Below, one piece after another: positions 3,001-51,036 of a stretch of DNA of 64,000 bases. The DNA lies in contig CAWDUQ010000002.1 in NCBI GenBank assembly GCA_963805495.1, positions 1,453,828-1,517,827 on the forward strand. The letters run 5' to 3'. A program made the translations under genes and the position numbers. The DNA comes from an uncultured Acidobacteriota bacterium. GTDB lineage: Bacteria; Acidobacteriota; Thermoanaerobaculia; UBA5066; Gp7-AA6. Position 1 is the first letter of the stretch, and every line of letters begins with the position of its first letter. The notes under the pieces were generated by a model. It made no database searches. It was given only the letters and a program-made list of their open reading frames with translations, and was not told the DNA's origin.

Positions 3001-5426
3001 TCGGACCCTGTGCCGACGGTTCGCCTAACTTTTCGGGCGGATCGAGCCCCGCGGGCAAGCTGACCCGGCGCTACGGCTACAACTTCCTGCCCACGACGGG
3101 CCCCGTCGTCGACGAGACGTTCGAATACAGCGGCGCCGGCGGCCGGCTTTCGAGGCTGACGACCGCCGCGGGCAACGGAGGTCTCGCCGCGTCCGCCTCG
3201 CAGACCTGGTCCTACGACGCGCTCGGCCTGCCGTCTTCGCATTCGCACCCGAGGACCGCCGGCGCCGCAGCCTTCCCGGTGACATTCGGCTACGACCACG
3301 GCCTCCCGACCTCGATCGTCGCGAACGGACTGGGGGTCGTGCCCGCGGCCGCCTACGGACCGTCCGCCGCCCTGTCGTCGTGGACCGCCGGCAACTCCGG
3401 CGCGCCCGTCGCAACGGCGATTTCGCCCGACGCGAGCCTGTTGCCGAGGCCGGCCAGTATCTCGAACGCCCTGTGGAGCTCCGGGACCTACGCGTACGAC
3501 GGCGCCGGCGACATTCTCAAGGCGGGATCGGGCGACACCTTCACGTACGACTCCCGCGCCCGGCTGACCTCGGCGAAATTCGGATCGACGACCCGCGGGT
3601 TCGCTTACGACCGCTGGGGCAACCTCACCCAGAACGGTGGGACCGTCTTCACCCTCGACTCGCACACCAATCGCATCACCTCGGGCGGGGCGCTGTACGA
3701 CGCCCGGGGCAACATGATCGGCGGCAACGGTGAATCGATGTCCTGGGATCTCCTCGACCGCCAGTACCGCAATACCGGCCCGAGCGCCGACTGGGTCTAC
3801 CTTTTCGCCGGCTCCGGCGAGCGCGTCGGCAAGTTCCCCGCGAAAGCCGGGGTGCTCCGCCGCGAGATGGCCCGCTACGTCGCCGAGGCCAACGTGCTCG
3901 CGAAGGGCTGGGCGCTGCCGGCCTGCTCCGGGTCCTTCGCCGACGTGTCCTGTTCGGATCCCGACGCGCGATACATCGAGCTCGTTTACGGCCGTGGAAT
4001 CACCGCCGGCTGCAACGTCGGCCCGCCCCAGTACTGTCCCGACGCCTCGCTCACCCGCGCCCAGATGTCCGTTTTTCTCGTCAAGGGCTACAAGCCCGAC
4101 GGCTTCGCTCCGCCGCCGTGCGCCGGGACGTTTCAGGACGTGTCCTGCTCCGGCCCCTATGCCGGGTTCGCGCCGTGGATCGAGCAGCTCTACCGCGACG
4201 GCGTCACGGCCGGCTGCGGCACCGGCCCGCTCCGATTCTGCCCCGGCAACTCCGTCGGCGAATGGGAGATGCTCGTCTGGCTCGCCAGGGCCCCGGGCGC
4301 GACTCCGGGCTCGTTCCTCTGGAGCGCCTACCACCCCGTCCCGCGCGGCACGATCTATACTTTTCGCGACGATTCCAATCGTGTCGTGACCGAGATGGCG
4401 GGAGGCTCGACCGGGACTTCGACGGCCACCCTGTCGGTGACCCGGGACAACGTCTTCCTCGGCAACCTCCTCGTCGCCTCCTACATTGCCTCGCCCGCCG
4501 GCTGGCAGTACACGACCTCGGACCATCTCGGCAGCCCCAGGATCGTGTTCAACCAGGCGCGCCAGGTGGTCGAGACCCACAAGTACTGGCCCTACGGCGA
4601 AGACACTACGACGGCACCGCCGTCCCAGCGCCTCGCCTATTGTTTGATGGAGCGCGACGCCGAGTCCACGCGCTTCTACGACCATGCCCGGACGCATGAT
4701 CACAACCTGGGCCGATTCCTCTCCCCGGACCGCGTGGGAGGGACGGCGCAGGATCCGCAATCGTGGAACCGCTACGCGTACACCCTCAACAACCCGATGA
4801 AGCACGTGGACCCGGACGGTCGGCTGACGATCCTCGTCCACGGGACTTGGGCGGCGAGCAACCCGACGTTCCAGCCGGGCGGAGCCTTCTTTGGAAGCGT
4901 CAAGGGAATGCTGCCTGACCGAGCGTATGTGTCACTCAAGTGGTCGGGTGGGAATACAAGAGCGGACCGTCACGCGGGCGCCGAAGCTCTTGCGCGTTAC
5001 ATCCGCAACTATCAGTTTGCACCTGGCGAAGGCCTTTACCAGGTCGGACACAGCCATGGCGGCAACGTGATCATCGAAGCGATCAACATGGGCCTCGGGC
5101 GGAAGACGGACGCCCTCGTGTTGCTGGGAACACCGTCTCGACCTGGATACAGACTGGAATCCGCCAATTCGGTGGGAACGTTCGCCACATTCGCGAAAGC
5201 GAACGATCTCGTCCAGATCCTCGGCGGCTTGATGAACGTGATACCCCTTCTCGGAGAGATCGGTCTCGCGGGCAGAGAGCAGCCGGGTGCCATCAACTTT
5301 CAGTTCAGCGGAGGATCCATCTTCGGGGCTCACAGCGAGTTATACGAAGACCCACTCGTACTGGAGTGGATCGGGCGCGTACTCAAAGGCTCTACCGAGC
5401 TCGACAGGCCTCGGGCCACTGACTAA
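1..5426 (+). CDS. RHS/YD-repeat polymorphic toxin; 5'-partial (the ORF is open from the window start in the frame of 177..5426). It has an RHS core and a C-terminal alpha/beta-hydrolase (lipase/esterase-like) toxin domain.
   Basis: Many YD repeats (RYAYDALGR, TYSYDVNSRLTRVTQ, YDSRARLTSA). RHS core motif YDHARTHDHNLGRFLSPDRVGG...NPMKHVDPDGR. After DPDGR there is a ~200 aa domain with LVHG...GHSHGG (GxSxG) and a distal AHSELY His. In-frame translation upstream of 177 has no stop codon. Confidence 0.85.
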   Translation, partial: IGWELSLGAIKTCRHGTTTAPCYVAPDGSQHLFIRGQGNGKVTGDGTQYFLKGTGPYEMWDGDGNHFVFDKQAAGFDDPLTGGFTHDFGRGRDGWYLGSLADPHGNGYSVTYWAGSHPRWTYGVSTCSAVTASLMQMRAPSGTGGWVPKDIRLPSGQAVHVERGHNGFLDGMVLSATFPVFANGTLTTRTWTLGYDTPYDGYAHSCGTGLVSVSLQRLKELRLPSDLTGSPKYQFAQAGLLTDLTLPTGAKAEYCYGGYTFFHGRAGAVAANCPGLPPPTQALTAISPTAFVCGSAAAGEEPPIDATATCAEDNEARWMDSEKGVLKRTVTEPLRGRVSTTTYTQYAFPFGESGSASSPGEPQTLTVVVLPPTDQNAAGSPGRSRAQATLFLASPRIAQAPVGTARPSVPGDRVGADIEQRYFETDPNVTTPASPACPGTSADAKFCSSRALRTVRRTFEYDDAVNLEGNRRLRSERAIHGPGNCASCPYHLVAYSNTAGSWEGNGRHYENEVHSGSLGNDGRTTFTDWAPANWSTGPGASGVVLPNLFIERRSAEGSSVRDEFFDFDTASGFLRGSFVYDAVRDLAFLRCRYDDGAGNVDKEFSRSFAASSPPSPAYCSSHHPVFPSSVGTDGDSFGKDDTWQNGELVSSRWINGSVATPTFPTRGYVRDATTGWVTSSSDTSGLTTRYAYDALGRVTQVTPPAAGELKTWVCYEGPNATTAYRAASAQACPVSPSNGNAKAWEHFDYDGLGRLAREKALRPGAGVSKRFHLFDAAGNAYFRSEWVADAAGESITADLATACVFSDGNFATSRPASAPGTYSLCFDPFGRTQQIVGSKHSSLATVDRKDGSAWYSDTADAARTYCINATFSSLQSAACSAGGLSATTQTRRDAFGRTTSVTEPTGDVTTYSYDVNSRLTRVTQGAQSRSFNFDAVGMLRDETTPEGGQVTHDAIGTLGNVLRETRPGNLVLTRQFDFAGRVTREDAGGSKYTVHCYDGVGPCADGSPNFSGGSSPAGKLTRRYGYNFLPTTGPVVDETFEYSGAGGRLSRLTTAAGNGGLAASASQTWSYDALGLPSSHSHPRTAGAAAFPVTFGYDHGLPTSIVANGLGVVPAAAYGPSAALSSWTAGNSGAPVATAISPDASLLPRPASISNALWSSGTYAYDGAGDILKAGSGDTFTYDSRARLTSAKFGSTTRGFAYDRWGNLTQNGGTVFTLDSHTNRITSGGALYDARGNMIGGNGESMSWDLLDRQYRNTGPSADWVYLFAGSGERVGKFPAKAGVLRREMARYVAEANVLAKGWALPACSGSFADVSCSDPDARYIELVYGRGITAGCNVGPPQYCPDASLTRAQMSVFLVKGYKPDGFAPPPCAGTFQDVSCSGPYAGFAPWIEQLYRDGVTAGCGTGPLRFCPGNSVGEWEMLVWLARAPGATPGSFLWSAYHPVPRGTIYTFRDDSNRVVTEMAGGSTGTSTATLSVTRDNVFLGNLLVASYIASPAGWQYTTSDHLGSPRIVFNQARQVVETHKYWPYGEDTTTAPPSQRLAYCLMERDAESTRFYDHARTHDHNLGRFLSPDRVGGTAQDPQSWNRYAYTLNNPMKHVDPDGRLTILVHGTWAASNPTFQPGGAFFGSVKGMLPDRAYVSLKWSGGNTRADRHAGAEALARYIRNYQFAPGEGLYQVGHSHGGNVIIEAINMGLGRKTDALVLLGTPSRPGYRLESANSVGTFATFAKANDLVQILGGLMNVIPLLGEIGLAGREQPGAINFQFSGGSIFGAHSELYEDPLVLEWIGRVLKGSTELDRPRATD
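3930..4295 (+). other. Two tandem SLH-like (S-layer-homology-like) repeats embedded in the RHS protein, each with conserved Cys residues.
   Basis: FADVSCSDPDARYIELVYGRGITAGCNVGPPQYCPDASLTRAQMSVFLVKGY and FQDVSCSGPYAGFAPWIEQLYRDGVTAGCGTGPLRFCPGNSVGEWEMLVWLARA match the FxDV...GIxxG...TRAEma.fL SLH pattern. Confidence 0.45.
4824..5426 (+). other. C-terminal toxin domain of the RHS protein (alpha/beta hydrolase, lipase-like). This variable tip has lower GC.
   Basis: Starts right after the DPDGR autoproteolysis-type motif. GHSHGG nucleophile elbow. GC drops to about 55% from ~4900 to ~6300. Confidence 0.6.
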
Positions 5427-25784: not shown

Positions 25785-26519
25785 TCAGCGCAGCAGCGAC
25801 GCGAGCTTCGTCTCGGCCTCGGCGTGCAGAGTGGGCGGAGCCCCGTAGAACGCGCCCGCGGCGCGTCCCTCCGCGTCGAAGACGAGCAGCGTCGGCACGG
25901 CGCTCACGTCGCCGAAGGCGCGGACGAGGTCGGGCTGGCCGAGGACCCAGGTCAGCGGGAGGTTGAGCTCGCCGACGAGCTTTCGGACTTTCGGCTCCTC
26001 GGACTCGATCGCGACGGCCGCGACGACGAGCTTCTCCCCGTACTGCTTCTTGAGCTCGCCGAGCCAACCGAGCGTCCGGCGGCAGGGCGGGCACCAGGTT
26101 GCCCAGAACTCCACCAGCACGACGCGGCCTTTCAGGTCCCCGCGCGAGACCGTGCGGCCGTCGAGGTCGGTCAGCGTGACCGCGGGAAACGCCGCCACCT
26201 CCGTGCCCTTCGACGGCGACGCCGCGGCGCGCGCGTCGGCCTTGCGCCCGGCCAGCAGGAGCTCGATCATGCGGGTCAGGTCGGCCTGGAACCGCTCGTG
26301 CGCGGCCGCGCTCTTCAGCGGCGCGTAGCGACCGCCTTCCCCCTTCTCCCCCTTCCCGTAGAAGCCGAAGTCGTTGGGAGTCGCCACCAGCACGTCGTCG
26401 ACGAAGATCGCGGGATAGCGGGTCACGCCGAAGCGCTTCGCGAGGGCCGAGTCACCGTAGTTCTCCGAGATGAAGCGCGCCTTGCCTCCGAACTTCTGAA
26501 CGACGCTCTGGGCCAGCAA
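25785..26519 (-). CDS. TlpA-like thiol-disulfide oxidoreductase (thioredoxin fold, WATWCPPC) with an extra N-terminal thioredoxin-like half-domain. It is in-frame with the upstream gene across a single TGA.
   Basis: VVLVEFWATWCPPCRRTLGWLGELKKQY TlpA/ResA motif. The N-terminal 100 aa (ARFISENYGDSALAKRFGVTRYPAIFVDD) look like the C-terminal half of a thioredoxin fold. The annotated start is a TTG. Confidence 0.65.
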   Translation of the reverse strand: MLAQSVVQKFGGKARFISENYGDSALAKRFGVTRYPAIFVDDVLVATPNDFGFYGKGEKGEGGRYAPLKSAAAHERFQADLTRMIELLLAGRKADARAAASPSKGTEVAAFPAVTLTDLDGRTVSRGDLKGRVVLVEFWATWCPPCRRTLGWLGELKKQYGEKLVVAAVAIESEEPKVRKLVGELNLPLTWVLGQPDLVRAFGDVSAVPTLLVFDAEGRAAGAFYGAPPTLHAEAETKLASLLR

Positions 26520-26540
26520 ACTTGCCGGATCGGAGAGGTT

Positions 26541-27698
26541 TCAGGTGTAGGGCCACCGGACGAGGGTGACGGTGACGGTCGCGGGCACCGCGGCGGGGCG
26601 CGGCCGGGCCGGCTCGAGCGCCGCGAAGTAGCGGGGAAGGACCTCGGCGACAACCGCCGAGGCCTGCGCGGGAGAGGCTCCGGACGCCGCGGATGCGGCA
26701 TCGGCCTCGCCCGCCTCCAGGAAGATCCGGCCGATGCTCTGGTCGACCCCGCCGGTCTCGGAGAGGCGGGGCCGAAGCTCCGCCAGCTTCGCCTTCGCCT
26801 GCTCGATCGTGAGCTCCGGGACCCTTCCCGTCAGGGGCGCGGCGCGCAGCACCGCCTGGAGGTACCGGAGCATTGCGCCGTAGGAGAGGCCGGCCGCATC
26901 GAGCTCGCGCGCTTCCTTGAGCGTCGAGCTCGCCGTGATGAACTCCCGGTGCCGGTCGATCGAAGCCGGCGGCCTGTACGCGGACAGCAGTTCGCCCTCG
27001 AGCACGTCGAGCTCGGCCCGGAGGCTGCGCACCGGCGGCGGCCGCAGGCTCGACGGCTCGGACAAGGTTCGACAGAAGGCGCCGAGTTCGCGCTGCGCCC
27101 GGGCGACGCCGAGGTAGTAGAAACCGACCTCGGGCATCGTGTTGCGCTCGTAGTCGAGGCTCGCCTCGTAGAAGACCTTGACCGCCGGAACCGAGGCCTC
27201 GCCGACCGCCCGCACCGCCGCGGGCGTCACGCCCTCGAGCGCCTTCGGCGAAGGCGCGCCGAGTGTCTTCCCGAGGTCCTGCCCCATGCGCTTCCAGGCG
27301 GCCTCGAACGCGGCGTCGCTGTTGCGGTCGGCCGGTGGCAGCGACCCCAGGTACCGGGAGGCTTCGAGGTCCGGCTGTACGCTCGCGAGACGCTGCAAGG
27401 CCAGGAGCCGATGCCGGCCTCGCATGGCCTCTTCGACGCGTTCCATGGCCGGCAGGGCGCCTTTCTTGATCTGGAGCCACATCTCGTCCGTCGACGCGTT
27501 CGACTTCAGGTAATCCGACCAGCCCCGGATCTCGGCGGCGAGCGGGTCGGCCTGCGGCGGCGCGGCGGCGATCGAGGCGAGAAAGGCCGTGGCGACGGCC
27601 GCGGCGGCGAGAAGGACGAGACGGCCCGGGCGCATCGCGGCCCGGAGCATGACACGGGGCGCCGAGCCGAATCGCCGGGCGACCCGTGAGGATCTCAT
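26541..27698 (-). CDS. Secreted hypothetical protein (signal peptide, ~350-aa mostly helical domain). The C-terminus runs into a TGA that is in-frame with the downstream thioredoxin gene.
   Basis: ATG at 27698 overlaps the upstream gene stop (ATGA). Signal MRSSRVARRFGSAPRVMLRAAMRPGRLVLLAAAAVATAFLASIAA. The upstream 188 codons of the long ORF are R/G-rich non-coding. Confidence 0.55.
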   Translation of the reverse strand: MRSSRVARRFGSAPRVMLRAAMRPGRLVLLAAAAVATAFLASIAAAPPQADPLAAEIRGWSDYLKSNASTDEMWLQIKKGALPAMERVEEAMRGRHRLLALQRLASVQPDLEASRYLGSLPPADRNSDAAFEAAWKRMGQDLGKTLGAPSPKALEGVTPAAVRAVGEASVPAVKVFYEASLDYERNTMPEVGFYYLGVARAQRELGAFCRTLSEPSSLRPPPVRSLRAELDVLEGELLSAYRPPASIDRHREFITASSTLKEARELDAAGLSYGAMLRYLQAVLRAAPLTGRVPELTIEQAKAKLAELRPRLSETGGVDQSIGRIFLEAGEADAASAASGASPAQASAVVAEVLPRYFAALEPARPRPAAVPATVTVTLVRWPYT

Positions 27699-28618
27699 CG
27701 GGAAGTTATCGGCGTGCGACTCAGCCGCTCGAGCTCCACGACCTCGAGGGCGCGGGCCTCGGCCGGCGTGAGGTCGGCGAGCTGCTCGAGCGTGCGCGTC
27801 TTTCCCGCCTCGGTCGCGATCAGGTAGCCGAGGTAGTACCCCGAGCGCGACGGGATGTCGAGGGCGGCGGCGCCCCCCAGGAAGTACCGCGCGTAGTCCT
27901 CGCGCTTCTCGCTGTCCAGAAGCTTCAGGGCCTCCGGCGCGGTGCGGTCGAGAGCCGCCCGGGCCGGCCCGATGGGCGGGAGGCAGCAGACCTGCTGCTC
28001 CGGGACCTCCGGGTTCAGCCGGCGGCTCACGTAGGTCGCCAGGCCCTCGGCCCAGAGCGCCCAGCCGAAGGTCTCGGGATCCTCCGCCATGGCCTCGCCG
28101 TGGTAGACGTGGAAGAGCTCGTGAACGACGAGCGGCGCGAGATCTTCTTTCAGCCTGGCGATGACGTCGAGTCCGAACAGGAGCGCGGTCTTCCCGTCCA
28201 CCTCGCGCGTCGCGCCGTCGAACGCACCGGCCGAATAGACGAAGTACACGGGCGTCGAGCATCGGAACCGGGGGAACGATTTCCGGAACGCCCCGAGCTC
28301 GCCGGGCAGGTCCTTCGACAGTCGCGCGGACAGTTCCCGCATCGCCCCTTCGATCTCCGGCACCTTCTCGAGCGAGCGCGGAACGAACTCGGCCGGCGGC
28401 TTGGTCGCCTGGTGAAAGATGCCTTCGTAGACCGCCGCGCTGGGCCTCTCGACGATCTGCTGGAAGAGACGGTACTGCTCGGCACCGGGCTGGCTCTGCG
28501 CGGCCGCCCAGAACGTCCAGAACGCGGGCATGAGGTCCGTGGTGCGGCAGCCGGCCTCCGGAAGGGCGGGCTCCGCCAGGGTCGCGGCGAGCAACAGAAC
28601 CGGGCCGAGCGGAGTCAC
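27695..28618 (-). CDS. Secreted putative zinc metalloprotease-like protein (HExxH; DUF2268-like).
   Basis: Signal MTPLGPVLLLAATLA. HELFHVYH motif. Confidence 0.55.
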   Translation of the reverse strand: MTPLGPVLLLAATLAEPALPEAGCRTTDLMPAFWTFWAAAQSQPGAEQYRLFQQIVERPSAAVYEGIFHQATKPPAEFVPRSLEKVPEIEGAMRELSARLSKDLPGELGAFRKSFPRFRCSTPVYFVYSAGAFDGATREVDGKTALLFGLDVIARLKEDLAPLVVHELFHVYHGEAMAEDPETFGWALWAEGLATYVSRRLNPEVPEQQVCCLPPIGPARAALDRTAPEALKLLDSEKREDYARYFLGGAAALDIPSRSGYYLGYLIATEAGKTRTLEQLADLTPAEARALEVVELERLSRTPITSR

Positions 28619-39492: not shown

Positions 39493-40095
<603 letters not shown>

Positions 40096-40117
40096 GTCGT
40101 TGTTCGCTCCTGCTCTG

Positions 40118-40417
40118 TTACGGCCTGGGCAGAACCAGCTCGCCGATTCCGACCGACACGAGGATGCATCCCAGGATCAGCGTCGACGCGAAAAGGACGC
40201 CCATGATGCGGCGCTCGAACTTGAGGTGCATGAAGTACAGGGCGACGAGCACCGCCTTGATGATCGCGAGTCCCACGATCCCCCCGGCGAGCACGAGCTC
40301 GGAATGGTGCGGAATGATCGCCCACGCGATCTCGCCGATCGTGAGCCCCAGCAGCCACCAGAAGATGGCCATGTAGTTGGGTATCTGGTGCGTGTCGCTG
40401 TGTGCTTCGGACGACAT
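40118..40417 (-). CDS. ctaF: Cytochrome c oxidase subunit IV (bacterial CtaF-type small subunit).
   Basis: GAAGGGGGA Shine-Dalgarno sequence. 3-TM 99-aa protein. Position matches ctaF. Confidence 0.7.
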   Translation of the reverse strand: MSSEAHSDTHQIPNYMAIFWWLLGLTIGEIAWAIIPHHSELVLAGGIVGLAIIKAVLVALYFMHLKFERRIMGVLFASTLILGCILVSVGIGELVLPRP

Positions 40418-40427
40418 CGTTCCCCCT

Positions 40428-40535
40428 TCAGTGCGCTCGCGAGACGATGAAGAGAATCGACCCGAGGAAGAGACCCGCGCCGAGGCTCACGAGGATCCAG
40501 AGGACCCGGCGGTTGGTCGCGTCGGTCGCGGTCAT
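40428..40535 (-). CDS. 35-aa single-TM micro-protein translationally coupled to ctaB (ATGA overlap).
   Basis: MTATDATNRRVLWILVSLGAGLFLGSILFIVSRAH. ATG overlaps the ctaB stop. Its own stop lies 10 nt before the coxIV ATG. Confidence 0.35.
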   Translation of the reverse strand: MTATDATNRRVLWILVSLGAGLFLGSILFIVSRAH

Positions 40536-41425
40536 CGATCGAACACCATGAGCCCCAGAAGGGCCGGCAGGTACAGCACCGACGCGAGGAAGAGACGCCG
40601 CGCCGCCGGGACCGTGCGCTGCCAGGCGAAAACGAGGGTGAAGGCGAGGAAGGCCGTACCGAGCAGCAGCGCCCCCCAGAGGTAGCCCCGGCCCGCCGAG
40701 GCGAGGAACCCGGCCGCGAGGGTCACGGGCAGGAGAGCCGTGGCGTAGAGGACGGCTTGCCGGCCGGTCGAGGAGCCGTCCCGGTCGGTCACGGCGAGCA
40801 TCGGGAAGCCTCCGCGGGCGTAGTCCTCGCGGTAGAGCCAGCCGATCGCCAGGAAGTGCGGGAGCTGCCAGAGAAACAGGATGGCGAAGAGGCCCCAGCC
40901 GGCGGGGCCGAGGGACCCGCGCGCGGCGGCCCAGCCCATGAGCGGTGGCAGGGCCCCGGGTACCGCCCCGACGACCGTGCAGAGCGAGCTGACGCGCTTG
41001 AGCGGCGTGTACACGAAGACGTACGAGAAGATCGTCGCCGCGCCGAGCGCGAGGGTCAGCGGATTGACGGCCGCCAGCAGCGCCAGCCCCACGACGGAAA
41101 GGGCGATTCCGAAGGCGCGGGCGTCTTCGGGGCGGAGCCGGCCCGAGGGAATGGGACGGCGGCTCGTGCGGTGCATGAGCGCGTCGGTTTCCCGCTCGAC
41201 GTAGTTGTTGAGGGCCGAGGCTCCCCCGCACAGGAGCGCCGTGCCGGCCATGAAGATCAGGAAGGCCAGGAAAGAAAAGCTCCCCGGACCGCCGACGGCG
41301 TAGCCGACCCCGGCGGTCAGGAGGACGAGCATCGTGATGCGTGGCTTCGCGAGCTCCAGGTAGTCCCCGAAGCGCGGGGAAACCTCCCCGGCGGGCAGCG
41401 CGGCCGCGGCGGGAGCTACTTCCAC
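40532..41425 (-). CDS. ctaB: Protoheme IX farnesyltransferase (heme O synthase).
   Basis: GDYLELAKPRITMLVLLTAGVGY, NNYVERETDALMHRTSRRPIPSG and QLPHFLAIGWLYREDY motifs. GTG start inferred at 41425. Confidence 0.85.
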   Translation of the reverse strand: MEVAPAAAALPAGEVSPRFGDYLELAKPRITMLVLLTAGVGYAVGGPGSFSFLAFLIFMAGTALLCGGASALNNYVERETDALMHRTSRRPIPSGRLRPEDARAFGIALSVVGLALLAAVNPLTLALGAATIFSYVFVYTPLKRVSSLCTVVGAVPGALPPLMGWAAARGSLGPAGWGLFAILFLWQLPHFLAIGWLYREDYARGGFPMLAVTDRDGSSTGRQAVLYATALLPVTLAAGFLASAGRGYLWGALLLGTAFLAFTLVFAWQRTVPAARRLFLASVLYLPALLGLMVFDR

Positions 41426-42399
41426 CCGGCTGCCCTTCCCGGCATCGCGGGCCGGATCGGAACGACGTTGTTGCGGCGGCGGTCGAGGGCGAGCGCCGAG
41501 ACCGTCAGGGCGACGGTCGATCCCAGCAGCAGGGCGCCCGTCGCGACGTGCGCCGTCGTGAGAATGACGTCCTTCTTCGACAGCACCGTCAGCGCTCCGA
41601 GGGTGACCTGGACGGCGACGAGCCCGCACAACCCGGCGGCGGCGCGCGATAGCCCCCGGCGCCCCGAACGGAACGCGCGGACCGCCGAAGCGGCGACGAG
41701 CACGGCGATCGCGAGGGCCATGATCCGGTGAGCGAAGGCGATCGCCACGGGGAGGGTGCCGAGGGGCGGAACGATCCGCCCGAGCGCGAGCGGGAAGTCC
41801 GGAATCGCGAGTCCGGACTTCGTATGCCGCATCACGGCGCCCACCACAAGCTGCACGAAGATGACGGCGCCGGTCGCCCCGGCGAGCCGCGCGACGGGGC
41901 TCGCGCGGAACGCACCGGTGAGGCTCGCCGGTGCGGCCTCGCGGAAGCGGGGCGAAGTGGCGACGGCGATCGTGACGGTCAGGACGAAAAAGATCTGCGC
42001 CAGGCAACCGTGCGCCACGGAGATCGGCGTCGGGAGAAAGTAGATCACGGTCAGGCCGCCGAGGAGCCCCTGGGCGACGACGGCCGCGAGCGCGGCGTAG
42101 CCGAGCCTCCGCACCCACGCACGGTCTTCGCGGCGCGCGAGCCAGATCGCGAGGATGATCGTGAGAAAGCCGACGCCGGAGGCGATGAGCCGGTGCGTGT
42201 GCTCGAACCGGATGCCGCCGACCATCTTCGACAGCGGGAATGTGAACATGTTCCAGCCGTACGTGGTCGGCCAGTCGGGCACCGAGAGGCCGGACTCGGT
42301 CGACGTCACCAGCCCGCCCGCGACGATCAGCACGAGCGTCGCCGCGGCCACGAGGACCGCGTAGGCGTGGAGGCCGCGGGGACCGGGGCGATCAGCCAT
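41416..42399 (-). CDS. ctaA: Heme A synthase (COX15/CtaA).
   Basis: 8-TM protein with conserved His pairs (FEHTHRLIA, HVATGALL). ATG at 42399 overlaps the end of coxI. Confidence 0.8.
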   Translation of the reverse strand: MADRPGPRGLHAYAVLVAAATLVLIVAGGLVTSTESGLSVPDWPTTYGWNMFTFPLSKMVGGIRFEHTHRLIASGVGFLTIILAIWLARREDRAWVRRLGYAALAAVVAQGLLGGLTVIYFLPTPISVAHGCLAQIFFVLTVTIAVATSPRFREAAPASLTGAFRASPVARLAGATGAVIFVQLVVGAVMRHTKSGLAIPDFPLALGRIVPPLGTLPVAIAFAHRIMALAIAVLVAASAVRAFRSGRRGLSRAAAGLCGLVAVQVTLGALTVLSKKDVILTTAHVATGALLLGSTVALTVSALALDRRRNNVVPIRPAMPGRAAGWK

Positions 42400-44179
42400 G
42401 CGCCTTGGCGGGGGCCGGGCCCGTCGGGGCCTCGTTCTGGGGCCAGTAGTCCGCACCGTGCCCGGGGACGCTGTACTCGTAGGGCCCGCGGTGCACCGTC
42501 GGGATGCGCCCCGTGAAGTTCTCGTGCGGCGGAGGCGACGAGGTCTGCCACTCGAGCGTGTTCGCGTGCCAGGGGTTGGGTCCCGCGACCTTGCCCCGGC
42601 GCAGCGACAGGAAAAAGTTGAGGATGAGGATCAACTGCGCCGCTCCGAGGACGAAGAGCGAGATCGTCATGAACTGGTTCATCGGCTGGAGGTTCTTGAA
42701 CAACGAGTACTGGGTGTAGTCGTAGATCCGGCGCGGCATGCCCCGCATCCCCAGGAAGTGCATCGGGAAGAACACCAGGTTGAACGTGACGAAGGTGAGC
42801 GCCCAGTGAATCTTGCCCCACGTCTCGTTCATCATCCGGCCGAACATCTTCGGGTACCAGTAGTAGAGACCCGCGAAGGCCCCGAAGAGCGAGCCGCCGA
42901 AGAGTACGTAGTGGATGTGGCCCACGATGAAGTAGGTGTCGTGGATGAAGATGTCGACCGGCGTCGAGGCCATGAAGATGCCGGAGAGCCCTCCGATGAC
43001 GAACATGGCCACGAACGAGAGGGCATTCAGCATGGGCGTCGAGAAGTGAACGTCGCCGCCCCAGACGGTTCCGAGCCAGTTGAACGTCTTGATGGCCGAA
43101 GGCACGGCGATGACCATCGTCGAGATCATGAAGGTCGTGCCGAGGATGGGGTTCATGCCGCTCTGGAACATGTGGTGTCCCCAGACGATGAACCCGAGCC
43201 CTGCAATCCCCATCATCGAGTACGCCATGGCGCGGTAGCCGAACACGGGCTTGCGGCAGAAGACGGGCAGGATCTCCGAGGTGATGCCCATCGCGGGCAG
43301 GATCATGATGTAGACCTCGGGGTGCCCGAAGAACCAGAAGAGGTGCTGCCACAGGAGGACCTGGCCCCCGCCGGCGTTCGTCAGCGGCTGCCCAGAGATG
43401 ACGAGTCCGGCCGGCAGAAAGAACGTCGTGCCGAGCGTCCGGTCGAAGAGCAGCATGATGAGCGCGGCCGAGAGCACGGGCAGCGCGAGCAAAAGAAGAA
43501 CGGCCGTGATGAAGAGCGCCCACACGGTCAGGGGCATCCGGAAGAAGCTCATGCCGGGCGCCCGCATGTTGACGATCGTCGTGATGAAGTTGACCGACGT
43601 CAGGAGCGACGAGAGCCCCAGGATCAGGAGCGAGATCAGCCAGATCGTCTGGCCCCGCGGCTGGATCGCGGAGAGCGGCGCGTAGGAGGTCCAGCCTCCG
43701 GCCGCCGCGCCCCCGGTCACGAAGAAGGAGTAGATGATGAGGACCGCCGCGGGCACGGCCACCCAGAAGGACATCATGTTGAGCTTCGGGAAGGCCATGT
43801 CCCGGGCGCCGATCTGGATGGGGACGACGAAGTTGCCGAACGCGCCGATCAGGATCGGCATGATCGCGAAGAAGATCATGATCGTCGCGTGCATCGTGAA
43901 GAGCGAGTTGTAGAACTCGGGCAGCATCACGCCGCCCGGCATCCCTTCCGGCACGAGCTTGCCCATGAACGGCAGGGGCCGCCCGGGCCAGGCGAGCTGG
44001 TACCGGACGAGGGTCGCGAGCAGCCCCCCGATCACGAGCATCGTGAGCGCGTAGAAGAGGTACTGGATGCCGATCACCTTGTGGTCCAGCGAAAAGACGT
44101 ACTTGCGCAGGAACGTGGTCGGCGCGGCGTGTCCGCCGGCGTGGGCGTGCGCCTCCCGGGGCAGGGCGACCGTGCTCAA
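42392..44179 (-). CDS. ctaD: Cytochrome c oxidase subunit I.
   Basis: Canonical COX1 (HKVIGIQYLF, WFFGHPEVYIMILP, HHMF). 595 aa. Confidence 0.95.
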   Translation of the reverse strand: MSTVALPREAHAHAGGHAAPTTFLRKYVFSLDHKVIGIQYLFYALTMLVIGGLLATLVRYQLAWPGRPLPFMGKLVPEGMPGGVMLPEFYNSLFTMHATIMIFFAIMPILIGAFGNFVVPIQIGARDMAFPKLNMMSFWVAVPAAVLIIYSFFVTGGAAAGGWTSYAPLSAIQPRGQTIWLISLLILGLSSLLTSVNFITTIVNMRAPGMSFFRMPLTVWALFITAVLLLLALPVLSAALIMLLFDRTLGTTFFLPAGLVISGQPLTNAGGGQVLLWQHLFWFFGHPEVYIMILPAMGITSEILPVFCRKPVFGYRAMAYSMMGIAGLGFIVWGHHMFQSGMNPILGTTFMISTMVIAVPSAIKTFNWLGTVWGGDVHFSTPMLNALSFVAMFVIGGLSGIFMASTPVDIFIHDTYFIVGHIHYVLFGGSLFGAFAGLYYWYPKMFGRMMNETWGKIHWALTFVTFNLVFFPMHFLGMRGMPRRIYDYTQYSLFKNLQPMNQFMTISLFVLGAAQLILILNFFLSLRRGKVAGPNPWHANTLEWQTSSPPPHENFTGRIPTVHRGPYEYSVPGHGADYWPQNEAPTGPAPAKAHG

Positions 44180-45024
44180 GAGTTGCCTCCCTTTTCACTG
44201 ACGACGACGACCGGGGCCGCCGCGGGTTGCGCCTGCGGGGCGGCGGCCGGATTCTGTTCGGCGGCCGCCGCCGCGGCCTGCTCGGCCATCCACTTCTGGA
44301 AGTTCTCGGGCGTGTCGACCGTGACGAAGCCCTTCATCCGGAAGTGACCCAGGCCGCACAGCTCGGCGCACGCGATCTCCCAGTTCCCCACGCGGTTGCC
44401 CTCGAACCAGATGCGCGTCTTCATCCCCGGAACCGCATCCTGCTTGACGCGAAACTCCGGAAGGAAGAACGAATGGATGACGTCCTTGGACGTCAGCGTC
44501 GCGACGACCGGCTTGCCCACGGGGAAGTGCAGCTGGTTCAGCGTGACGACGTCGTCGGCCGTGTCGAACTTGCCGTCGGCGCCGGCGTACCGGATGTTCC
44601 AGGCGAACTGCTCGGCCGTCACGTGGACCTCGATCGCGTCCTTGGGCATCCGCTCCTTGATTTCTTCCCAGACTCGGCGCGAGAGCAGCGCGACCATCAC
44701 GCAGATCAAAGCCGGGACGATCGTCCAGATCACCTCGAGCCGGTTGTTGCCGTGCGTGTACACGGCCTTGCGCCCCTCGCGGTGCCGGTATTTCCAGAGG
44801 AAGAAAATCAGCAGGGCCTCGACGATCACGAAAATGACGCCGGTGATCCACGCGATGAGGTGCCAGATCGAGTCGATCTCGTGAGCGTAGGTCGACGCCT
44901 GCTCCGGCAGGTGCAGCCAGAACGGCAGGGCCCCCGCGGCGGCCGGCGCGAGGGCGGCCACGAAAAAGAAAAGCGCCGGCCGGAGAGCCCGGACGGCGCC
45001 CGAGAAACGCATTGTGTTGTTCAC
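44176..45024 (-). CDS. ctaC: Cytochrome c oxidase subunit II (CuA; no fused cytochrome c domain).
   Basis: CuA site HSFFLPEF...CAELCGLGHFRM. No CxxCH motif. Confidence 0.9.
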   Translation of the reverse strand: MNNTMRFSGAVRALRPALFFFVAALAPAAAGALPFWLHLPEQASTYAHEIDSIWHLIAWITGVIFVIVEALLIFFLWKYRHREGRKAVYTHGNNRLEVIWTIVPALICVMVALLSRRVWEEIKERMPKDAIEVHVTAEQFAWNIRYAGADGKFDTADDVVTLNQLHFPVGKPVVATLTSKDVIHSFFLPEFRVKQDAVPGMKTRIWFEGNRVGNWEIACAELCGLGHFRMKGFVTVDTPENFQKWMAEQAAAAAAEQNPAAAPQAQPAAAPVVVVSEKGGNS

Positions 45025-45043
45025 GGCGGGATAGATTACCGGA

Positions 45044-45841
45044 CTATCCCTTGAAGGTGAAGTCGAGCGTTTTCGACTCGTTGCCCGTGATCGTCACGTT
45101 CTGGGTCTGGGTGCCGTACTTCTCGTGCCACGCCTCGATCACGTAGTTGCCGGGCGGGAGATTCTTGATCTCGAAGGCGCCCTGGTCGTTGGTCACCGCG
45201 AAGAAGGGGTGGTTGAAAACGCCCGTGTAGGCGCCCATCCACTTGTGGACGTCGCACTTGAACCGGATCGGGACCTCGACCGAGTCGAACTTCTTGATCG
45301 TTTCCATGCCCTTGAAGGGCTGGCCGATGTTGAATTCGGCGTTCTTCTTCGGAAGGGCGTGGATGTTGTGCAGCGTGCCGTCGCTGTTGAGGACCTTCAG
45401 CGGCTGGCCCGCCATGATGCCGAAGACGTGCGGGTGGTACTGGCAGCCGTGCTGATCGAGGGTCACCGCCTCGGTCGGCACCGGGTAGTTGCCCGAGGCG
45501 CCTTCCTTGACGTAGACGAGCACCCACTCGAGGGTCTTGTTCGGGTTGACGACGACTTCCTCCTCGTGCACCGGCTCCTTGTGCTCGGACTTGCAGAAGG
45601 CGTCGGCGTCCATCTTGATGGTCGGCATCGCCGGGGCGGTGCCGTCGAAATTGACCTTGCCGGTCAGGGTCGCGCCGCCGGTCGCCGGGGCTGCCGCGGC
45701 GGCCGCCGCCGGGGCCGCCGACGTCGAGGTCGCCGGGGCCTCGTCTTCCATCAATGCGTCCTCGTCCTTCTGGCCGCCGCAGGCCAGGATCGGCAGGGAC
45801 GCGGCCGCCGCCAGAAGCAGAAAGAGAGCGCGCTTGGACAT
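45044..45841 (-). CDS. Lipoprotein with a cupredoxin-like (type-1 copper) domain fused to a carboxypeptidase-regulatory-like beta-sandwich.
   Basis: Lipobox LPILACGG. Candidate copper ligands ...LHNIH...FKCDVHKWM (His, Cys-x2-His-x2-Met). C-terminal GAFEIKNLPPGNYVIEAWHEKYG transthyretin/CarbopepD_reg-like motif. Confidence 0.5.
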   Translation of the reverse strand: MSKRALFLLLAAAASLPILACGGQKDEDALMEDEAPATSTSAAPAAAAAAAPATGGATLTGKVNFDGTAPAMPTIKMDADAFCKSEHKEPVHEEEVVVNPNKTLEWVLVYVKEGASGNYPVPTEAVTLDQHGCQYHPHVFGIMAGQPLKVLNSDGTLHNIHALPKKNAEFNIGQPFKGMETIKKFDSVEVPIRFKCDVHKWMGAYTGVFNHPFFAVTNDQGAFEIKNLPPGNYVIEAWHEKYGTQTQNVTITGNESKTLDFTFKG

Positions 45842-48173: not shown

Positions 48174-48284
48174 ATGAGCAGCCTCGGCTACCTGGCCGCC
48201 GTCAACGTGGTGATCTGGGTGGGACTGTTTTTCTACCTCTGGCGCCTTGACCGGCGCCTGACCGAATCGGAGCGCAAGTCATGA
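48174..48284 (+). CDS. ccmD: Heme exporter protein CcmD (36 aa; too short for the ORF track).
   Basis: MSSLGYLAAVNVVIWVGLFFYLWRLDRRLTESERKS: single TM followed by a basic tail. AAGGGAGAG Shine-Dalgarno sequence. The stop overlaps the ccmE ATG. Confidence 0.6.
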   Translation: MSSLGYLAAVNVVIWVGLFFYLWRLDRRLTESERKS

Positions 48285-48694
48285 AGAAGGGCTACTGGAT
48301 CGCCGCGGTGCTCACCCTCGCCTTTCTCGGCTTCGGCCTGACCGCGTTCCAGAAGACGCTGACCCCGTACCTGTCCTTCGACGAGGCGCGCAAGTCGACT
48401 GGGATCGTCCAGGTCATGGGCGGCCTCGACAAGCAGAGCGACCGCTACGACACGGGCAAAGAAGAGCTCTCGTTCGACCTGGTCGACCCGGCGGGCCACC
48501 GCATGCCGGTCGTCTACCGGGGCGTCCGTCCGGGCAACTTCAAGGACGCGATCTCCATCGTCGCGATCGGCCGCTTCGAGGAGGGCCGCATCGAGGCCGA
48601 GAAGCTCCTCGTGAAGTGTCCCTCGAAGTACCAGGGGGCGGAGGTCGAGAAGGCCTACTCGGCGCAGCCCGCGGCTCCGGCCCAAAAGAGCTGA
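48281..48694 (+). CDS. ccmE: Cytochrome c-type biogenesis heme chaperone CcmE (Cys-type CxxxY variant).
   Basis: TM anchor plus OB fold. LLVKCPSKYQG where the canonical form has LAKHDENY. Confidence 0.85.
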   Translation: MKKGYWIAAVLTLAFLGFGLTAFQKTLTPYLSFDEARKSTGIVQVMGGLDKQSDRYDTGKEELSFDLVDPAGHRMPVVYRGVRPGNFKDAISIVAIGRFEEGRIEAEKLLVKCPSKYQGAEVEKAYSAQPAAPAQKS

Positions 48695-51036
48695 TGTACA
48701 TCTGGCCCGGGGTGGCGGCGATCTGGGGAGCGCTCTTTGCGGGGATCGCCTCGGCGTTCGTCTACTTCCTCGTCGACCGGGGGCGCAAGGAACTCCTGCC
48801 GCTCGCTCGGACGACCTATACGGCGTTTGCGACCTGCGTCGTCGTCGCGTCGGCGATCCTCATGACTCTCCTTCTGCAGCACCGGTTCGACGTGGCCTAC
48901 GTCAACTCCTACTCGGCCACCGACCTGCCGCTCCACTTCCTAATCTCGACGTTCTGGGCCGGCCAGGAGGGTTCCTTCCTGCTGTGGTGCTTCTGGGGAG
49001 CGCTCATCGGGCTCTTCGTCTGGCGGAGCGCCAAGGAGCAGGAAGCGCCCGTGATGATCGTCTACATCGCGACCTTTCTCGGCATCATCGCGATCCTCTG
49101 CAAGCAGAGCCCCTTCAAGCTGCTGCCCCCGCCCGTGCCGCAGGACGGCGTCGGCCTGAATCCCCTTCTCCAGGACCCGTGGATGGTGATCCATCCGCCC
49201 GTGATGTTCATCGGGTTCGCGTCCCTCTCGGTCCCCTTTTCCTTCGCGATCGCCGCTCTCTGGAAGAAGCGCTGGGACGGCTGGATCACCCGGACGCTTC
49301 CCTGGGCGCTCCTGACCTTCCTGACTCTGGGAACCGCCATCCTCATGGGCGGCTACTGGGCGTACAAGACGCTCGGCTGGGGCGGATACTGGGGCTGGGA
49401 CCCGGTCGAGAACACGAGCCTCGTCCCCTGGCTCTTTACGGCGGCCCTCGTCCACGGCATGTTCCTGCAGCGCGCGCGCAAGCGACACCGCAAGGTCAAC
49501 CTGATCCTCGCCTGCACGGCCTACGCGACCATCCTCTACGGCACGTTCCTGACGCGCTCGGGAGTCCTCGCGGATTTCTCGGTGCACTCGTTCATCGATC
49601 TCGGGATCACGGGGTGGCTGGTCGGAATCCTCGGCACGTTCATCGGACTGTCCATCATCCTGATCGCCTGGCGGTGGCGGTCGATTCCCACGGCCTCGGA
49701 CGAGGAGGGATCGCTGCTCTCCCGCAGCGTGCTCTTGATTCTGGGGATCGCGGTCTTCTGCGCTCTCGGCCTCGTGATCCTCCTCGGCACGTCGGCCCCG
49801 ATCCTGACGCGGCTCTCCGGCACGCCCTCGCAGGTCCAGACCGCTTTTTACGGCCGGACGACCACCCCCGCGGGCTTTCTGCTCATCCTGCTGTCGGGGA
49901 TCGTCGGATTCGTGTCCTGGAAGGGCACGACGTTCCGGGAGCTCCTCAGGAACTCTTACCGGTCCCTCGCCGTCGCCGCCGTCGTGATCGTCACGGCCCT
50001 CATCCTGGGAGCGAGGGGGACCGAGCCGCTCGTTCTCATCTTCACCGCGGCCTTCGCGGCCGACATGAACCTCCGCGCCGTCCTGCGCAAGACCTCGAGC
50101 GGAAAGCTCGGCGGGGCGGGCGGATACCTCGCCCACGTCGGCGTGGGCATCATGCTCGCCGGCGTCGTCATCTCGGGGGCCTACGCGAAGACGCAGCGGC
50201 TGACCTTGCGGGTCAACACGCCGACCAAGTCGGGCGACGTGACGCTGACGTACCTGCGGGTCGTGCCCGGGAGCGGCCGCACCAAACAGGCCATGGAGGT
50301 CCGCGTCGTCACGGCGGCCGGGAAGACCTTCTACGCCTACCCCAAGATGTACGAGAACAGCCGGACCGGCCAGCTCATGGTGAACCCTTCGATCAGGAGC
50401 TCGGCCGTGACCGACCTCTACATCGCTCCGCAGCAGTACGACCCGGGCCAGCCCGAAACGGTCGGCCGCGACATCCGGCTGACGAAGGGAACGACCACCA
50501 ACATCGACGGCACCGGCTTCACGTTCCGCGACTTCAACGCCGACCGGTCGGCGATGATGCGGGGCGAGAAGACCGTCCTCGTCCTGACCGACCTGACGAT
50601 CACTCCGCCCGACGGCTCGCAGCACGACATGACCCTCAAGTACGTCTTTCACCTCGACGGCGGCGAGACCGAGGCCGAGGCCGTGCCGATCCCCGGCTAC
50701 CCCGACGCGAAGGCGCGCGTCCTCGCCGTCTCCCCCAACGACGGCGCCGTGATCCTCCGGTTGAACGGCGTCTCGAAGAACCCGGGCGACGAGTTCTCCC
50801 CGGCGACCGTCGAGTCGCTTTCGATCGAGGTGACGCGCAAGCCGCTCATCGCGCTCGTCTGGGGCGGCTTCTACGTCATGATGGCCGGGGGGCTCCTCGC
50901 TTTCATCAAGCGCACCGGCGAGGCGCGCCGCGCCGTCGTCGAGGCGGGCCAGGCGATGGTGGCATCCCGTACCGAGCCGCCGGTCGGCGCGACGGGGCCC
51001 GCCCTCCCGGCCCACACCCGCTCCCGCCTCGAGTAG
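48694..51036 (+). CDS. ccmF: Cytochrome c-type biogenesis protein CcmF.
   Basis: WGGYWGWDPVENTSLVPW WWD motif. Multiple TM helices. 781 aa. Confidence 0.9.
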   Translation: MYIWPGVAAIWGALFAGIASAFVYFLVDRGRKELLPLARTTYTAFATCVVVASAILMTLLLQHRFDVAYVNSYSATDLPLHFLISTFWAGQEGSFLLWCFWGALIGLFVWRSAKEQEAPVMIVYIATFLGIIAILCKQSPFKLLPPPVPQDGVGLNPLLQDPWMVIHPPVMFIGFASLSVPFSFAIAALWKKRWDGWITRTLPWALLTFLTLGTAILMGGYWAYKTLGWGGYWGWDPVENTSLVPWLFTAALVHGMFLQRARKRHRKVNLILACTAYATILYGTFLTRSGVLADFSVHSFIDLGITGWLVGILGTFIGLSIILIAWRWRSIPTASDEEGSLLSRSVLLILGIAVFCALGLVILLGTSAPILTRLSGTPSQVQTAFYGRTTTPAGFLLILLSGIVGFVSWKGTTFRELLRNSYRSLAVAAVVIVTALILGARGTEPLVLIFTAAFAADMNLRAVLRKTSSGKLGGAGGYLAHVGVGIMLAGVVISGAYAKTQRLTLRVNTPTKSGDVTLTYLRVVPGSGRTKQAMEVRVVTAAGKTFYAYPKMYENSRTGQLMVNPSIRSSAVTDLYIAPQQYDPGQPETVGRDIRLTKGTTTNIDGTGFTFRDFNADRSAMMRGEKTVLVLTDLTITPPDGSQHDMTLKYVFHLDGGETEAEAVPIPGYPDAKARVLAVSPNDGAVILRLNGVSKNPGDEFSPATVESLSIEVTRKPLIALVWGGFYVMMAGGLLAFIKRTGEARRAVVEAGQAMVASRTEPPVGATGPALPAHTRSRLE

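Follow-up and report, generated by a model that had tools for sequence, protein, structure and literature searches.

We analysed a 64,000-nucleotide stretch of DNA (the window) from an uncultured Acidobacteriota bacterium (contig CAWDUQ010000002.1), in which two minus-strand open reading frames (ORFs) share a single frame and are split by TGA 26543..26541 alone. Based on comparative sequence analysis, 25785..27698 (minus strand) is very probably (probability of about 0.9) one gene encoding an exported selenoprotein of ~637 residues, whose internal UGA codon would specify selenocysteine (Sec) at residue 386. The original prediction had interpreted the locus as a secreted selenoprotein with a selenocysteine insertion sequence (SECIS) behind the UGA, and this interpretation is supported by the comparisons presented here; its coordinates and sequence, including the two ORFs in one frame with a single TGA between them, proved correct throughout. 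The upstream ORF (27698..26544, minus strand) comprises 385 codons from ATG 27698 and ends in ...ATVTVTLVRWPYT (the same end reads ...PATVTVTLVRWPYT). Past the TGA, the frame continues as NLSDPASLLAQSVVQKFGGKARF... (NLSDPASLLAQSVVQKFGGKARFISENYGDSALAKRFGVTRYPAIFVDD...) for 251 unbroken codons until TGA 25787..25785. If translation begins at the first ATG, the product has 637 residues, and with an alternative start at Met17 (codon at 27650) it has 621, instead of the ~625 residues claimed earlier. In every public record examined, the locus is annotated as two genes, namely a 'hypothetical protein' of ~365 residues and a 'TlpA family protein disulfide reductase' of ~213-251 residues.

The in-frame UGA across relatives

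Relatives of the gene were collected by a scan of one genome per species, using search patterns that left the codon at the UGA position out. Relatives were present in 228 genomes, and the best 80 of these 228, nearly all of them metagenome-assembled genomes of Acidobacteriota (Thermoanaerobaculia, Holophagales, Vicinamibacteria and Polarisedimenticolia), were retrieved, giving 82 copies together with the window. All 82 copies carry TGA at the position, with no instance of TGC, TGT, TAA or TAG, and the same was observed for six distant members with 57-59% GC, whose N-terminal domains are ~30-35% identical. The matches listed among Joint Genome Institute (JGI) metagenome contigs (at least 120) all had TGA and none had TGC or TGT, under a pattern that permitted these three codons at the position and had TAA and TAG outside it. 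The position is therefore TGA in 208 out of 208 relatives examined (82 + 6 + 120 metagenome matches listed). The terminal stop of these genes served as an internal control; across the same genomes it is TAG in 45, TGA in 27 and TAA in 9. Since a genuine stop would drift as the terminal stop does, the invariance of the internal TGA argues that it is not an ordinary stop codon.

The same comparison bears on the possibility that the gene is a pseudogene, or a cysteine (Cys) gene into which faulty sequencing or assembly has introduced the TGA. Any single assembly can carry a false in-frame stop, and this locus offers no specific support for one; but the same TGA is found in more than 200 independent assemblies, from varied projects and sequencing technologies, with the frames intact on both sides, which leaves a pseudogene or such an error with a negligible probability.

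Conservation of the encoded protein extends across the UGA, with RWPYT before it and N[LIV]SDPA after it in all relatives. At the end of the upstream ORF, V377, T378, V380, R381, W382, P383 and Y384 are invariant, and the last nine residues are the best-conserved stretch of this ORF even where overall identity is ~30%. Judged from the alignments, such conservation would be strange at a true C-terminus, but is what a strand preceding an active site would naturally show. The family of the upstream domain is large (607 representatives at 50% identity). Our protein search, with a query in which Cys was put at the UGA position, returned more than 100 homologues of 360-385 residues that stop exactly at ...RWPYT. 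These do not represent homologues that end here, which would have spoken against the original prediction; they are ORFs cut at the same TGA, and the conserved protein continues in frame behind it. Synonymous changes (TCC/TCG/TCU, GAU/GAC) occur in codons +1 to +4, which still read Asn-[Leu/Ile/Val]-Ser-Asp, and the ~100 residues from the UGA to the TlpA domain are strongly conserved, with 40 invariant columns (alignment A4). No conserved downstream start codon or spacing was found, the first in-frame ATG, GTG or TTG lying anywhere from 1 to 74 codons past the UGA, so gene callers begin the 'TlpA' protein at arbitrary sites, as is the case in the public records (loci L001-L170 and the protein records). 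This sequence comparison shows that the UGA is decoded.

The original prediction had suggested a search for homologues with Cys in place of the UGA, and such forms do exist. P0002 (621 residues, RWPYT-C-NLSDPA) and P0007 (743 residues, RWPYS-C-NLSDPA) are full-length and unbroken, have TGC at the position, and align with the gene from end to end. These are the only two Cys forms seen, against at least 208 Sec forms, and a protein search with a 43-residue junction query, aimed at counting Cys forms, returned no candidate. Most selenoprotein families have many Cys homologues, and the near absence of Cys forms here is therefore unusual.

If the TGA were a genuine stop, the locus would encode a secreted helical protein of ~385 residues and a separately initiated TlpA-like reductase, and the hairpin described below would serve translational coupling, re-initiation or mRNA stability. 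Such an arrangement agrees with the public annotations, which all give two proteins, with a TTG located 7 codons past the TGA in the window, and with the fact that the Sec machinery was not located in the window or in ~1.4 Mb of related loci. However, it would have to account for a TGA kept in 208 of 208 relatives while the terminal stop varies, for a start codon and spacing that are not conserved, and for residues right past the TGA that are conserved as protein. It is also at odds with the structural model, in which the first strand (β1) of the downstream fold sits upstream of the TGA, and with the two homologues that carry TGC, in frame and ungapped, and have lost the GU of the hairpin loop. 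We consider two separate proteins highly improbable.

The putative SECIS hairpin

The hairpin CCGGCA-AGUU-UGCUGG begins 12 nt past the UGA and its loop begins 18 nt past the UGA, so that the position and the bacterial SECIS spacing claimed in the original prediction (loop G/U at ~18 nt) are borne out. In the bacterial SECIS (bSECIS) model, a loop of 3-9 nt is carried by a stem of 4-16 bp at a UGA-loop spacing of 16-37 nt, with G at loop position 1 or 2 and then G or U, and with flanking loop bases that often pair (PMC13188914). The geometry of the present element agrees with this model (4-nt loop A/G-G-U-U/C, 6-bp stem and 18-nt spacing). As to energy, the model asks for a minimum free energy no higher than -7.5 kcal/mol; the 16-nt hairpin alone has -7.2 kcal/mol in the window and -7.9 in the CCA variants, and the minimum free energy fold of the UGA plus 40 nt in the window has -11.5 kcal/mol, which includes a six-pair outer stem that is not conserved. 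The outer CUCU/AGAG stem noted earlier is likewise present in the window, but it does not hold up as a family feature: only 81% of its cells are paired, and of its four pairs, one is broken in 33 of 78 sequences and another in 23 of 78.

The inner hairpin is conserved as RNA as well as protein-coding sequence. The consensus in the 81 Sec-form genes is CC[G/A]GCA-[A/G]GU[U/C]-UGCUGG, and the hairpin is kept where N-domain identity is down to ~30%. Among 78 distinct sequences, pairing is complete (100%) throughout the 6-bp stem, in which one pair switches between G-U and A-U, and loop positions 1 and 4 covary (G..C in 40 sequences, A..U in 38, and no other combination). The coupled loop change (Gly-GGU/Leu-CUG to Ser-AGU/Leu-UUG) requires at least 8 events on a neighbour-joining tree, thus indicating repeated compensation and not a single inherited state. 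Synonymous sites in the hairpin are fixed on rare codons. Zero synonymous variation was found in 2 out of 84 conserved columns (residues with at least 4 codons), and both lie in the stem: Ala +6, which is GCA in 81/81 genes although over the whole gene GCA accounts for 5.6% of the codons for Ala, and Leu +9, for which all 81 genes use CUG. At codon +7, GGU (42) and AGU (39) are the sole codons used; these account for 9% of the codons for Gly and 3.3% of those for Ser. Pro +5 is only CCG or CCA, its third base (opposite U) always being a purine and the common CCC never occurring.

In the two Cys-form loci, the hairpin is altered at sites that are invariant in the Sec forms. L081 reads CCAGCA-GCUC-UGCUGA, with neither the loop GU nor an intact closing pair, and L082 reads CCGGCG-AGCC-UGCUGG, which has likewise lost the loop GU, with GCA→GCG and AGU→AGC. 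Decay of the hairpin in Cys forms is the pattern expected if the hairpin serves the UGA. The covariation, the frozen codons and this decay, all read from alignments, indicate that the hairpin is selected together with the UGA.

Some Sec-form variants from metagenome loci (L091 onward) depart from the consensus, with CCAGCC-GGGA-UGCUGG in 2 copies, a GGUU loop in 2, and a UGCUGA 3' arm in 3. The first of these can also be read as a 5-bp stem with the 6-nt loop CGGGAU. These variants could be alternative SECIS forms or sequencing errors.

The element is similar to the SECIS of E. coli fdhF, whose sequence was confirmed against 5,419 E. coli genomes. Both are short hairpins past the UGA with a 4-nt loop that exposes G-U, the loop being 18 nt from the UGA. 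In members with a GGUC loop, which are about half of the family, codons +6 to +8 (GCA GGU CUG) and the 10-mer GCAGGUCUGC are identical to fdhF in the same register, and in both the loop codon, GGU, stands seventh after the UGA. For the window copy, with its AGUU loop, the likeness to fdhF is limited to the loop GU and the two arms, GCA and UGC. The lower stems differ (CCR/UGG in the family, GGU(U)/ACC in fdhF), and so do the proteins, since fdhF encodes a molybdopterin enzyme that is unrelated to the thioredoxin (Trx)-fold redox domain proposed for this family.

The comparison shows that the codon is translated but not directly which residue is inserted. A UGA that is read through without Sec (e.g., if the hairpin stimulates near-cognate insertion of Trp or Cys) would give a full-length, selenium-free protein, and the fact that the Sec machinery was not found in the window and related loci is compatible with this. 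Nevertheless, the homologous residue is Cys, which forms the classic pair with Sec, and the residue is located at the redox-active site of a Trx-like fold in the model. The hairpin fits the SECIS model, and the GGUC members repeat the SelB-binding apex of fdhF at an identical offset. Furthermore, TGA is an ordinary and frequent stop in these genomes, so the code is not reassigned. Sec-free read-through thus appears very improbable, and insertion of Sec remains the preferred explanation.

A second perfect hairpin, GCAGCA-GGUC-UGCUGC, is present at 27983..27998 (minus strand) within the adjacent DUF2268 gene (codons Q-Q-V-C-C), and with two mismatches allowed the hairpin motif occurs 2 times in the window against 0.25 expected. 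It was rejected as a SECIS because it has no in-frame UGA, the closest TGA upstream of it being in another frame, and because it is not conserved (the homologue P0005 reads ESQICC); it is probably due to chance. A scan of the window and the related loci for further genes with an in-frame TGA and such a hairpin found none.

Domain architecture and proposed mechanism

The predicted features of the gene are listed in Table 1. The structural assignments draw on an AlphaFold (AF2) model of the Cys form P0002, which has a mean predicted local distance difference test (pLDDT) score of 73.6 and was computed from an alignment that is deep for the C-terminal half only.

Table 1. Predicted features of the putative selenoprotein gene and its RNA element (positions in the window)
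Feature	Position	Strand	Details
Whole putative selenoprotein gene	25785..27698	minus	637 codons + stop; ATG 27698, internal Sec-UGA, end TGA 25787..25785
N-terminal leader, predicted signal peptide	27558..27698	minus	By eye: basic n-region, core LVLLAAAAVATAFLASIAAA (27561..27620), small residues before DPL
All-helical N-terminal domain, ~325 residues (predicted)	26583..27557	minus	AF2 model of P0002, helices 38-345
Trx/glutaredoxin-like domain with predicted Sec, spans UGA	26199..26582	minus	AF2 model and 40 invariant columns
In-frame UGA, predicted Sec386, motif RWPYT-U-NLSDPA (UxxS)	26541..26543	minus	Comparative evidence
Putative SECIS hairpin	26513..26528	minus	CCGGCA (26528..26523), loop AGUU (26522..26519), UGCUGG (26518..26513)
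Outer stem CUCU (26537..26534) / AGAG (26509..26506)	26506..26537	minus	In window, not conserved
TlpA/ResA/CcmG-like thiol:disulfide reductase domain, C-terminal ~135 residues	25788..26192	minus	WCPPC at 26093..26082

Distant homologues show a signal-peptide pattern like that of the window copy (by eye: ...VLPASA-QN, ...FPVAA-QD and ...LPAIA-QD). The helical N-terminal domain (N-domain) has conserved motifs, including YRPPxSIDRHxEFI...LKEARELDxxGL.YGA.LRYLQA, and profile searches of Pfam, NCBIfam and PDB gave no sequence match to it. The C-terminal domain matches Pfam Redoxin (9e-18) and is of the Redoxin/AhpC-TSA-type Trx fold with WCxxC; its CPPC is intact in 79/81 copies and a CxxC is present in all 81. 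To our knowledge, TlpA-type domains are extracytoplasmic in all studied cases.

Between these two lies the predicted Sec domain, and the order of a Sec redox domain followed by a CPPC TlpA domain is as claimed in the original prediction. Its elements are β1 (VTVTLVRW), Sec386, α1, β2, α2, the cis-Pro loop RYPA (26420..26409), β3, β4 and α3. In the P0002 model, the strands are residues 359-365, 391-397, 414-417 and 420-423, and the helices are residues 375-385, 402-406 and 448-466, with Cys370 as the redox residue and an invariant Tyr-Pro (Y412-P413), at pLDDT of about 73-89. The predicted order β1-α1-β2-α2-β3-β4-α3, with the redox residue between β1 and α1, is that of a Trx/glutaredoxin (Grx) fold, and agrees with the succession from strand through active site and helix to cis-Pro strand that had been read from the sequence. 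In this model the UGA separates the coding sequence of β1, which lies upstream, from that of the remaining fold downstream, so that neither 'gene' alone would form the fold.

Neither the first 385 residues nor the ~125 residues around the UGA fall into a Pfam or NCBIfam family. The best matches of the middle domain are to DUF1525 (E = 0.028, Pfam, below the cut-off) and TIGR03757 (E = 0.01, NCBIfam), and PDB profile matches to thioredoxins and glutaredoxins are weak (E = 0.2-1) and in register. RYPAIFV aligns to the cis-Pro strands TVPQIFI and GIPTLLLF, and ungapped extension of the thioredoxin alignment pairs U with Cys32 and the Ser three positions further on with Cys35. In this register the motif is read as U-x-x-S. 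The original prediction had equated WPYT-U with a CPYC active site; it is better read as U-N-L-S (UxxS), in which U corresponds to the first Cys of CxxC. The Sec domain has no other Cys, and Cys209 of the N-domain is not kept in distant members, so that the invariant redox residues are the predicted Sec and the CPPC only.

We propose that UGA 26543..26541 would be recoded to Sec by the standard bacterial route, with CCGGCA-AGUU-UGCUGG acting as the SECIS. By analogy with fdhF, SelB-GTP-Sec-tRNA(Sec) would be held on the exposed apical-loop G-U with the UGA in the ribosomal A site. The architecture suggests that the product may be exported and may act as a periplasmic oxidoreductase, with the selenol of Sec386 as the nucleophile. 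In the model, Sec386 is placed between β1 and α1 (U-N-L-S), opposite the invariant R-Y-P cis-Pro loop. Since there is no resolving Cys in its domain, the nucleophilic selenol would be alone there, and a selenenyl-sulfide or oxidised selenium intermediate could be resolved and re-reduced by the fused CPPC domain, to which a CcdA/DsbD-type membrane shuttle may in turn supply electrons. Substrate binding may be a task of the helical domain. We regard this scheme, in which a Sec nucleophile is recycled by the CPPC domain, as tentative and on balance doubtful.

Several observations weigh against the interpretation of the gene as a selenoprotein. The middle domain has no significant Trx, Grx or ArsC match in Pfam, NCBIfam or PDB, the loop around Cys370 (370-372) has a pLDDT <50 in the P0002 model, and a single-sequence AF2 prediction of the domain (pLDDT 43) was unusable. 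A bulged U, present in the E. coli element, is missing from the hairpin. Relative to shuffles, the folding energy of the region does not stand out (z = -0.13) and was dropped as evidence, and Rfam returned nothing relevant, either in a gathering scan of the window or in a permissive scan of 26380..26620; with energy and Rfam unremarkable, the case rests on comparison, which places the feature well beyond chance. The catalytic scheme and the substrate are inferred from architecture. Finally, a tRNA-Sec scan and tblastn with E. coli SelA, SelB and SelD, covering the window and 170 loci (~1.4 Mb), detected no selA, selB, selD or tRNA-Sec. But because the neighbourhood is not conserved and these genes are expected to be unlinked, their absence near the gene says little either way. 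Acidobacteriota are known to include Sec users (PMC12013277; PMC13582414).

Related systems, gene context and significance

An inventory of 2026 lists 119 prokaryotic selenoprotein families, with several Trx-fold and TlpA/Redoxin entries (PMC13188914). Those in its Table 1 include a thiol:disulfide interchange protein (UxxC), DsbA-like and DsbG-like proteins, a 'Redoxin family protein' (UxxC) and a 'UGC-containing TlpA disulfide reductase', and a further TlpA/Redoxin-domain family, 'thiol-disulfide isomerase-like' (UxxC), is listed as well (PMC13188914). The present family resembles the listed Trx-fold selenoproteins in being an apparently exported bacterial redox protein with a predicted Sec at a Trx-fold active site, Cys homologues and an intragenic SECIS. 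In contrast to the listed TlpA/Redoxin selenoproteins, which have Sec inside the CxxC of the recognised domain, the CPPC is intact here and the predicted Sec is ~150 residues upstream, in a separate domain. That domain has no Pfam match, carries a UxxS motif and lies behind a helical domain of 325 residues, which sets it apart from the listed families by their descriptions. We found no match among the 119 families, the listed TlpA/Redoxin families, including the 'Redoxin family protein', being compared by description only (PMC13188914).

A single nucleophile just behind β1 of a glutaredoxin-type fold, with x-x-Ser where α1 starts and, like the present domain, no resolving Cys, is also found in monothiol glutaredoxins (CxxS) and in ArsC/Spx-type UxxS selenoproteins (arsenate reductase, TIGR00014). 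They differ in that the present domain has no Pfam or NCBIfam match to ArsC or Grx at E ≤ 1-10, and in architecture and the predicted extracytoplasmic location. In Neisseria, PilB/MsrAB is exported, and its TlpA-like domain recycles the fused Msr domains. The likeness, a TlpA/DsbE-like CxxC domain fused to a single-nucleophile redox module, is a functional analogy only, since the catalytic modules of PilB are MsrA and MsrB, which are unrelated to the Sec domain here. None of the curated NCBIfam selenoprotein models matches the N-domain or the Sec domain, and the strings WPYTU, RWPYT and WPYTC have zero occurrences in the searchable literature. Overall, this appears to be a new family within a well-known kind, that of Trx-fold selenoproteins with an fdhF-like SECIS.

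The gene starts in an ATGA overlap (27695..27698, minus strand) that combines the stop of the DUF2268 gene, which encodes a predicted Zn-protease, with the ATG of the selenoprotein gene, and a metagenome protein (P0005, 654 residues) has been called as a fusion of the two genes. DUF2268 is located upstream in the closest relatives only. There is no conserved synteny, the neighbours DUF2268, MgtC and FumC being common to the closest 5-9 genomes only, and the context thus offers no clue to function. In L064 (JBKKAU010000575.1) the RWPYT-TGA junction occurs twice, at positions 147 and 1933, ~1.8 kb apart, which suggests tandem paralogues of the selenoprotein gene.

Elsewhere in the window, 3..5426 (plus strand) is the 3' part of a gene for an RHS-repeat protein (>1,800 residues in the window) that extends past the window start. 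A cytochrome c oxidase cluster (COX1, COX2, COX3, COX4_pro, CtaA and DUF420) is located at 39493..45093 (minus strand), and a CcmF-like cytochrome c assembly gene at 48262..51033 (plus strand). These are 13-25 kb from the selenoprotein gene and have no conserved linkage to it. TlpA-type reductases work in such maturation pathways in other bacteria.

The family is spread over Thermoanaerobaculia, Holophagales, Vicinamibacteria and more distant Acidobacteriota lineages. It is possible, though in our assessment somewhat short of an even chance, that it represents an unrecognised, exported and nearly wholly Sec-dependent selenoenzyme family of the Acidobacteriota, which would carry out an undescribed periplasmic redox reaction by means of its helical and UxxS Sec domains and whose hairpin would be the SelB recognition element of the phylum. 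At the level of annotation, the finding corrects a systematic error, in that one probable gene is split in two in the public records examined, and the list of bacterial selenoproteins gains a well-supported and large family from an abundant, little-studied soil phylum. The hairpin, as a natural SECIS with repeated compensatory changes, may be used to find other selenoproteins in Acidobacteriota. If the broader interpretation is true, selenium would be a significant micronutrient for a dominant soil phylum.

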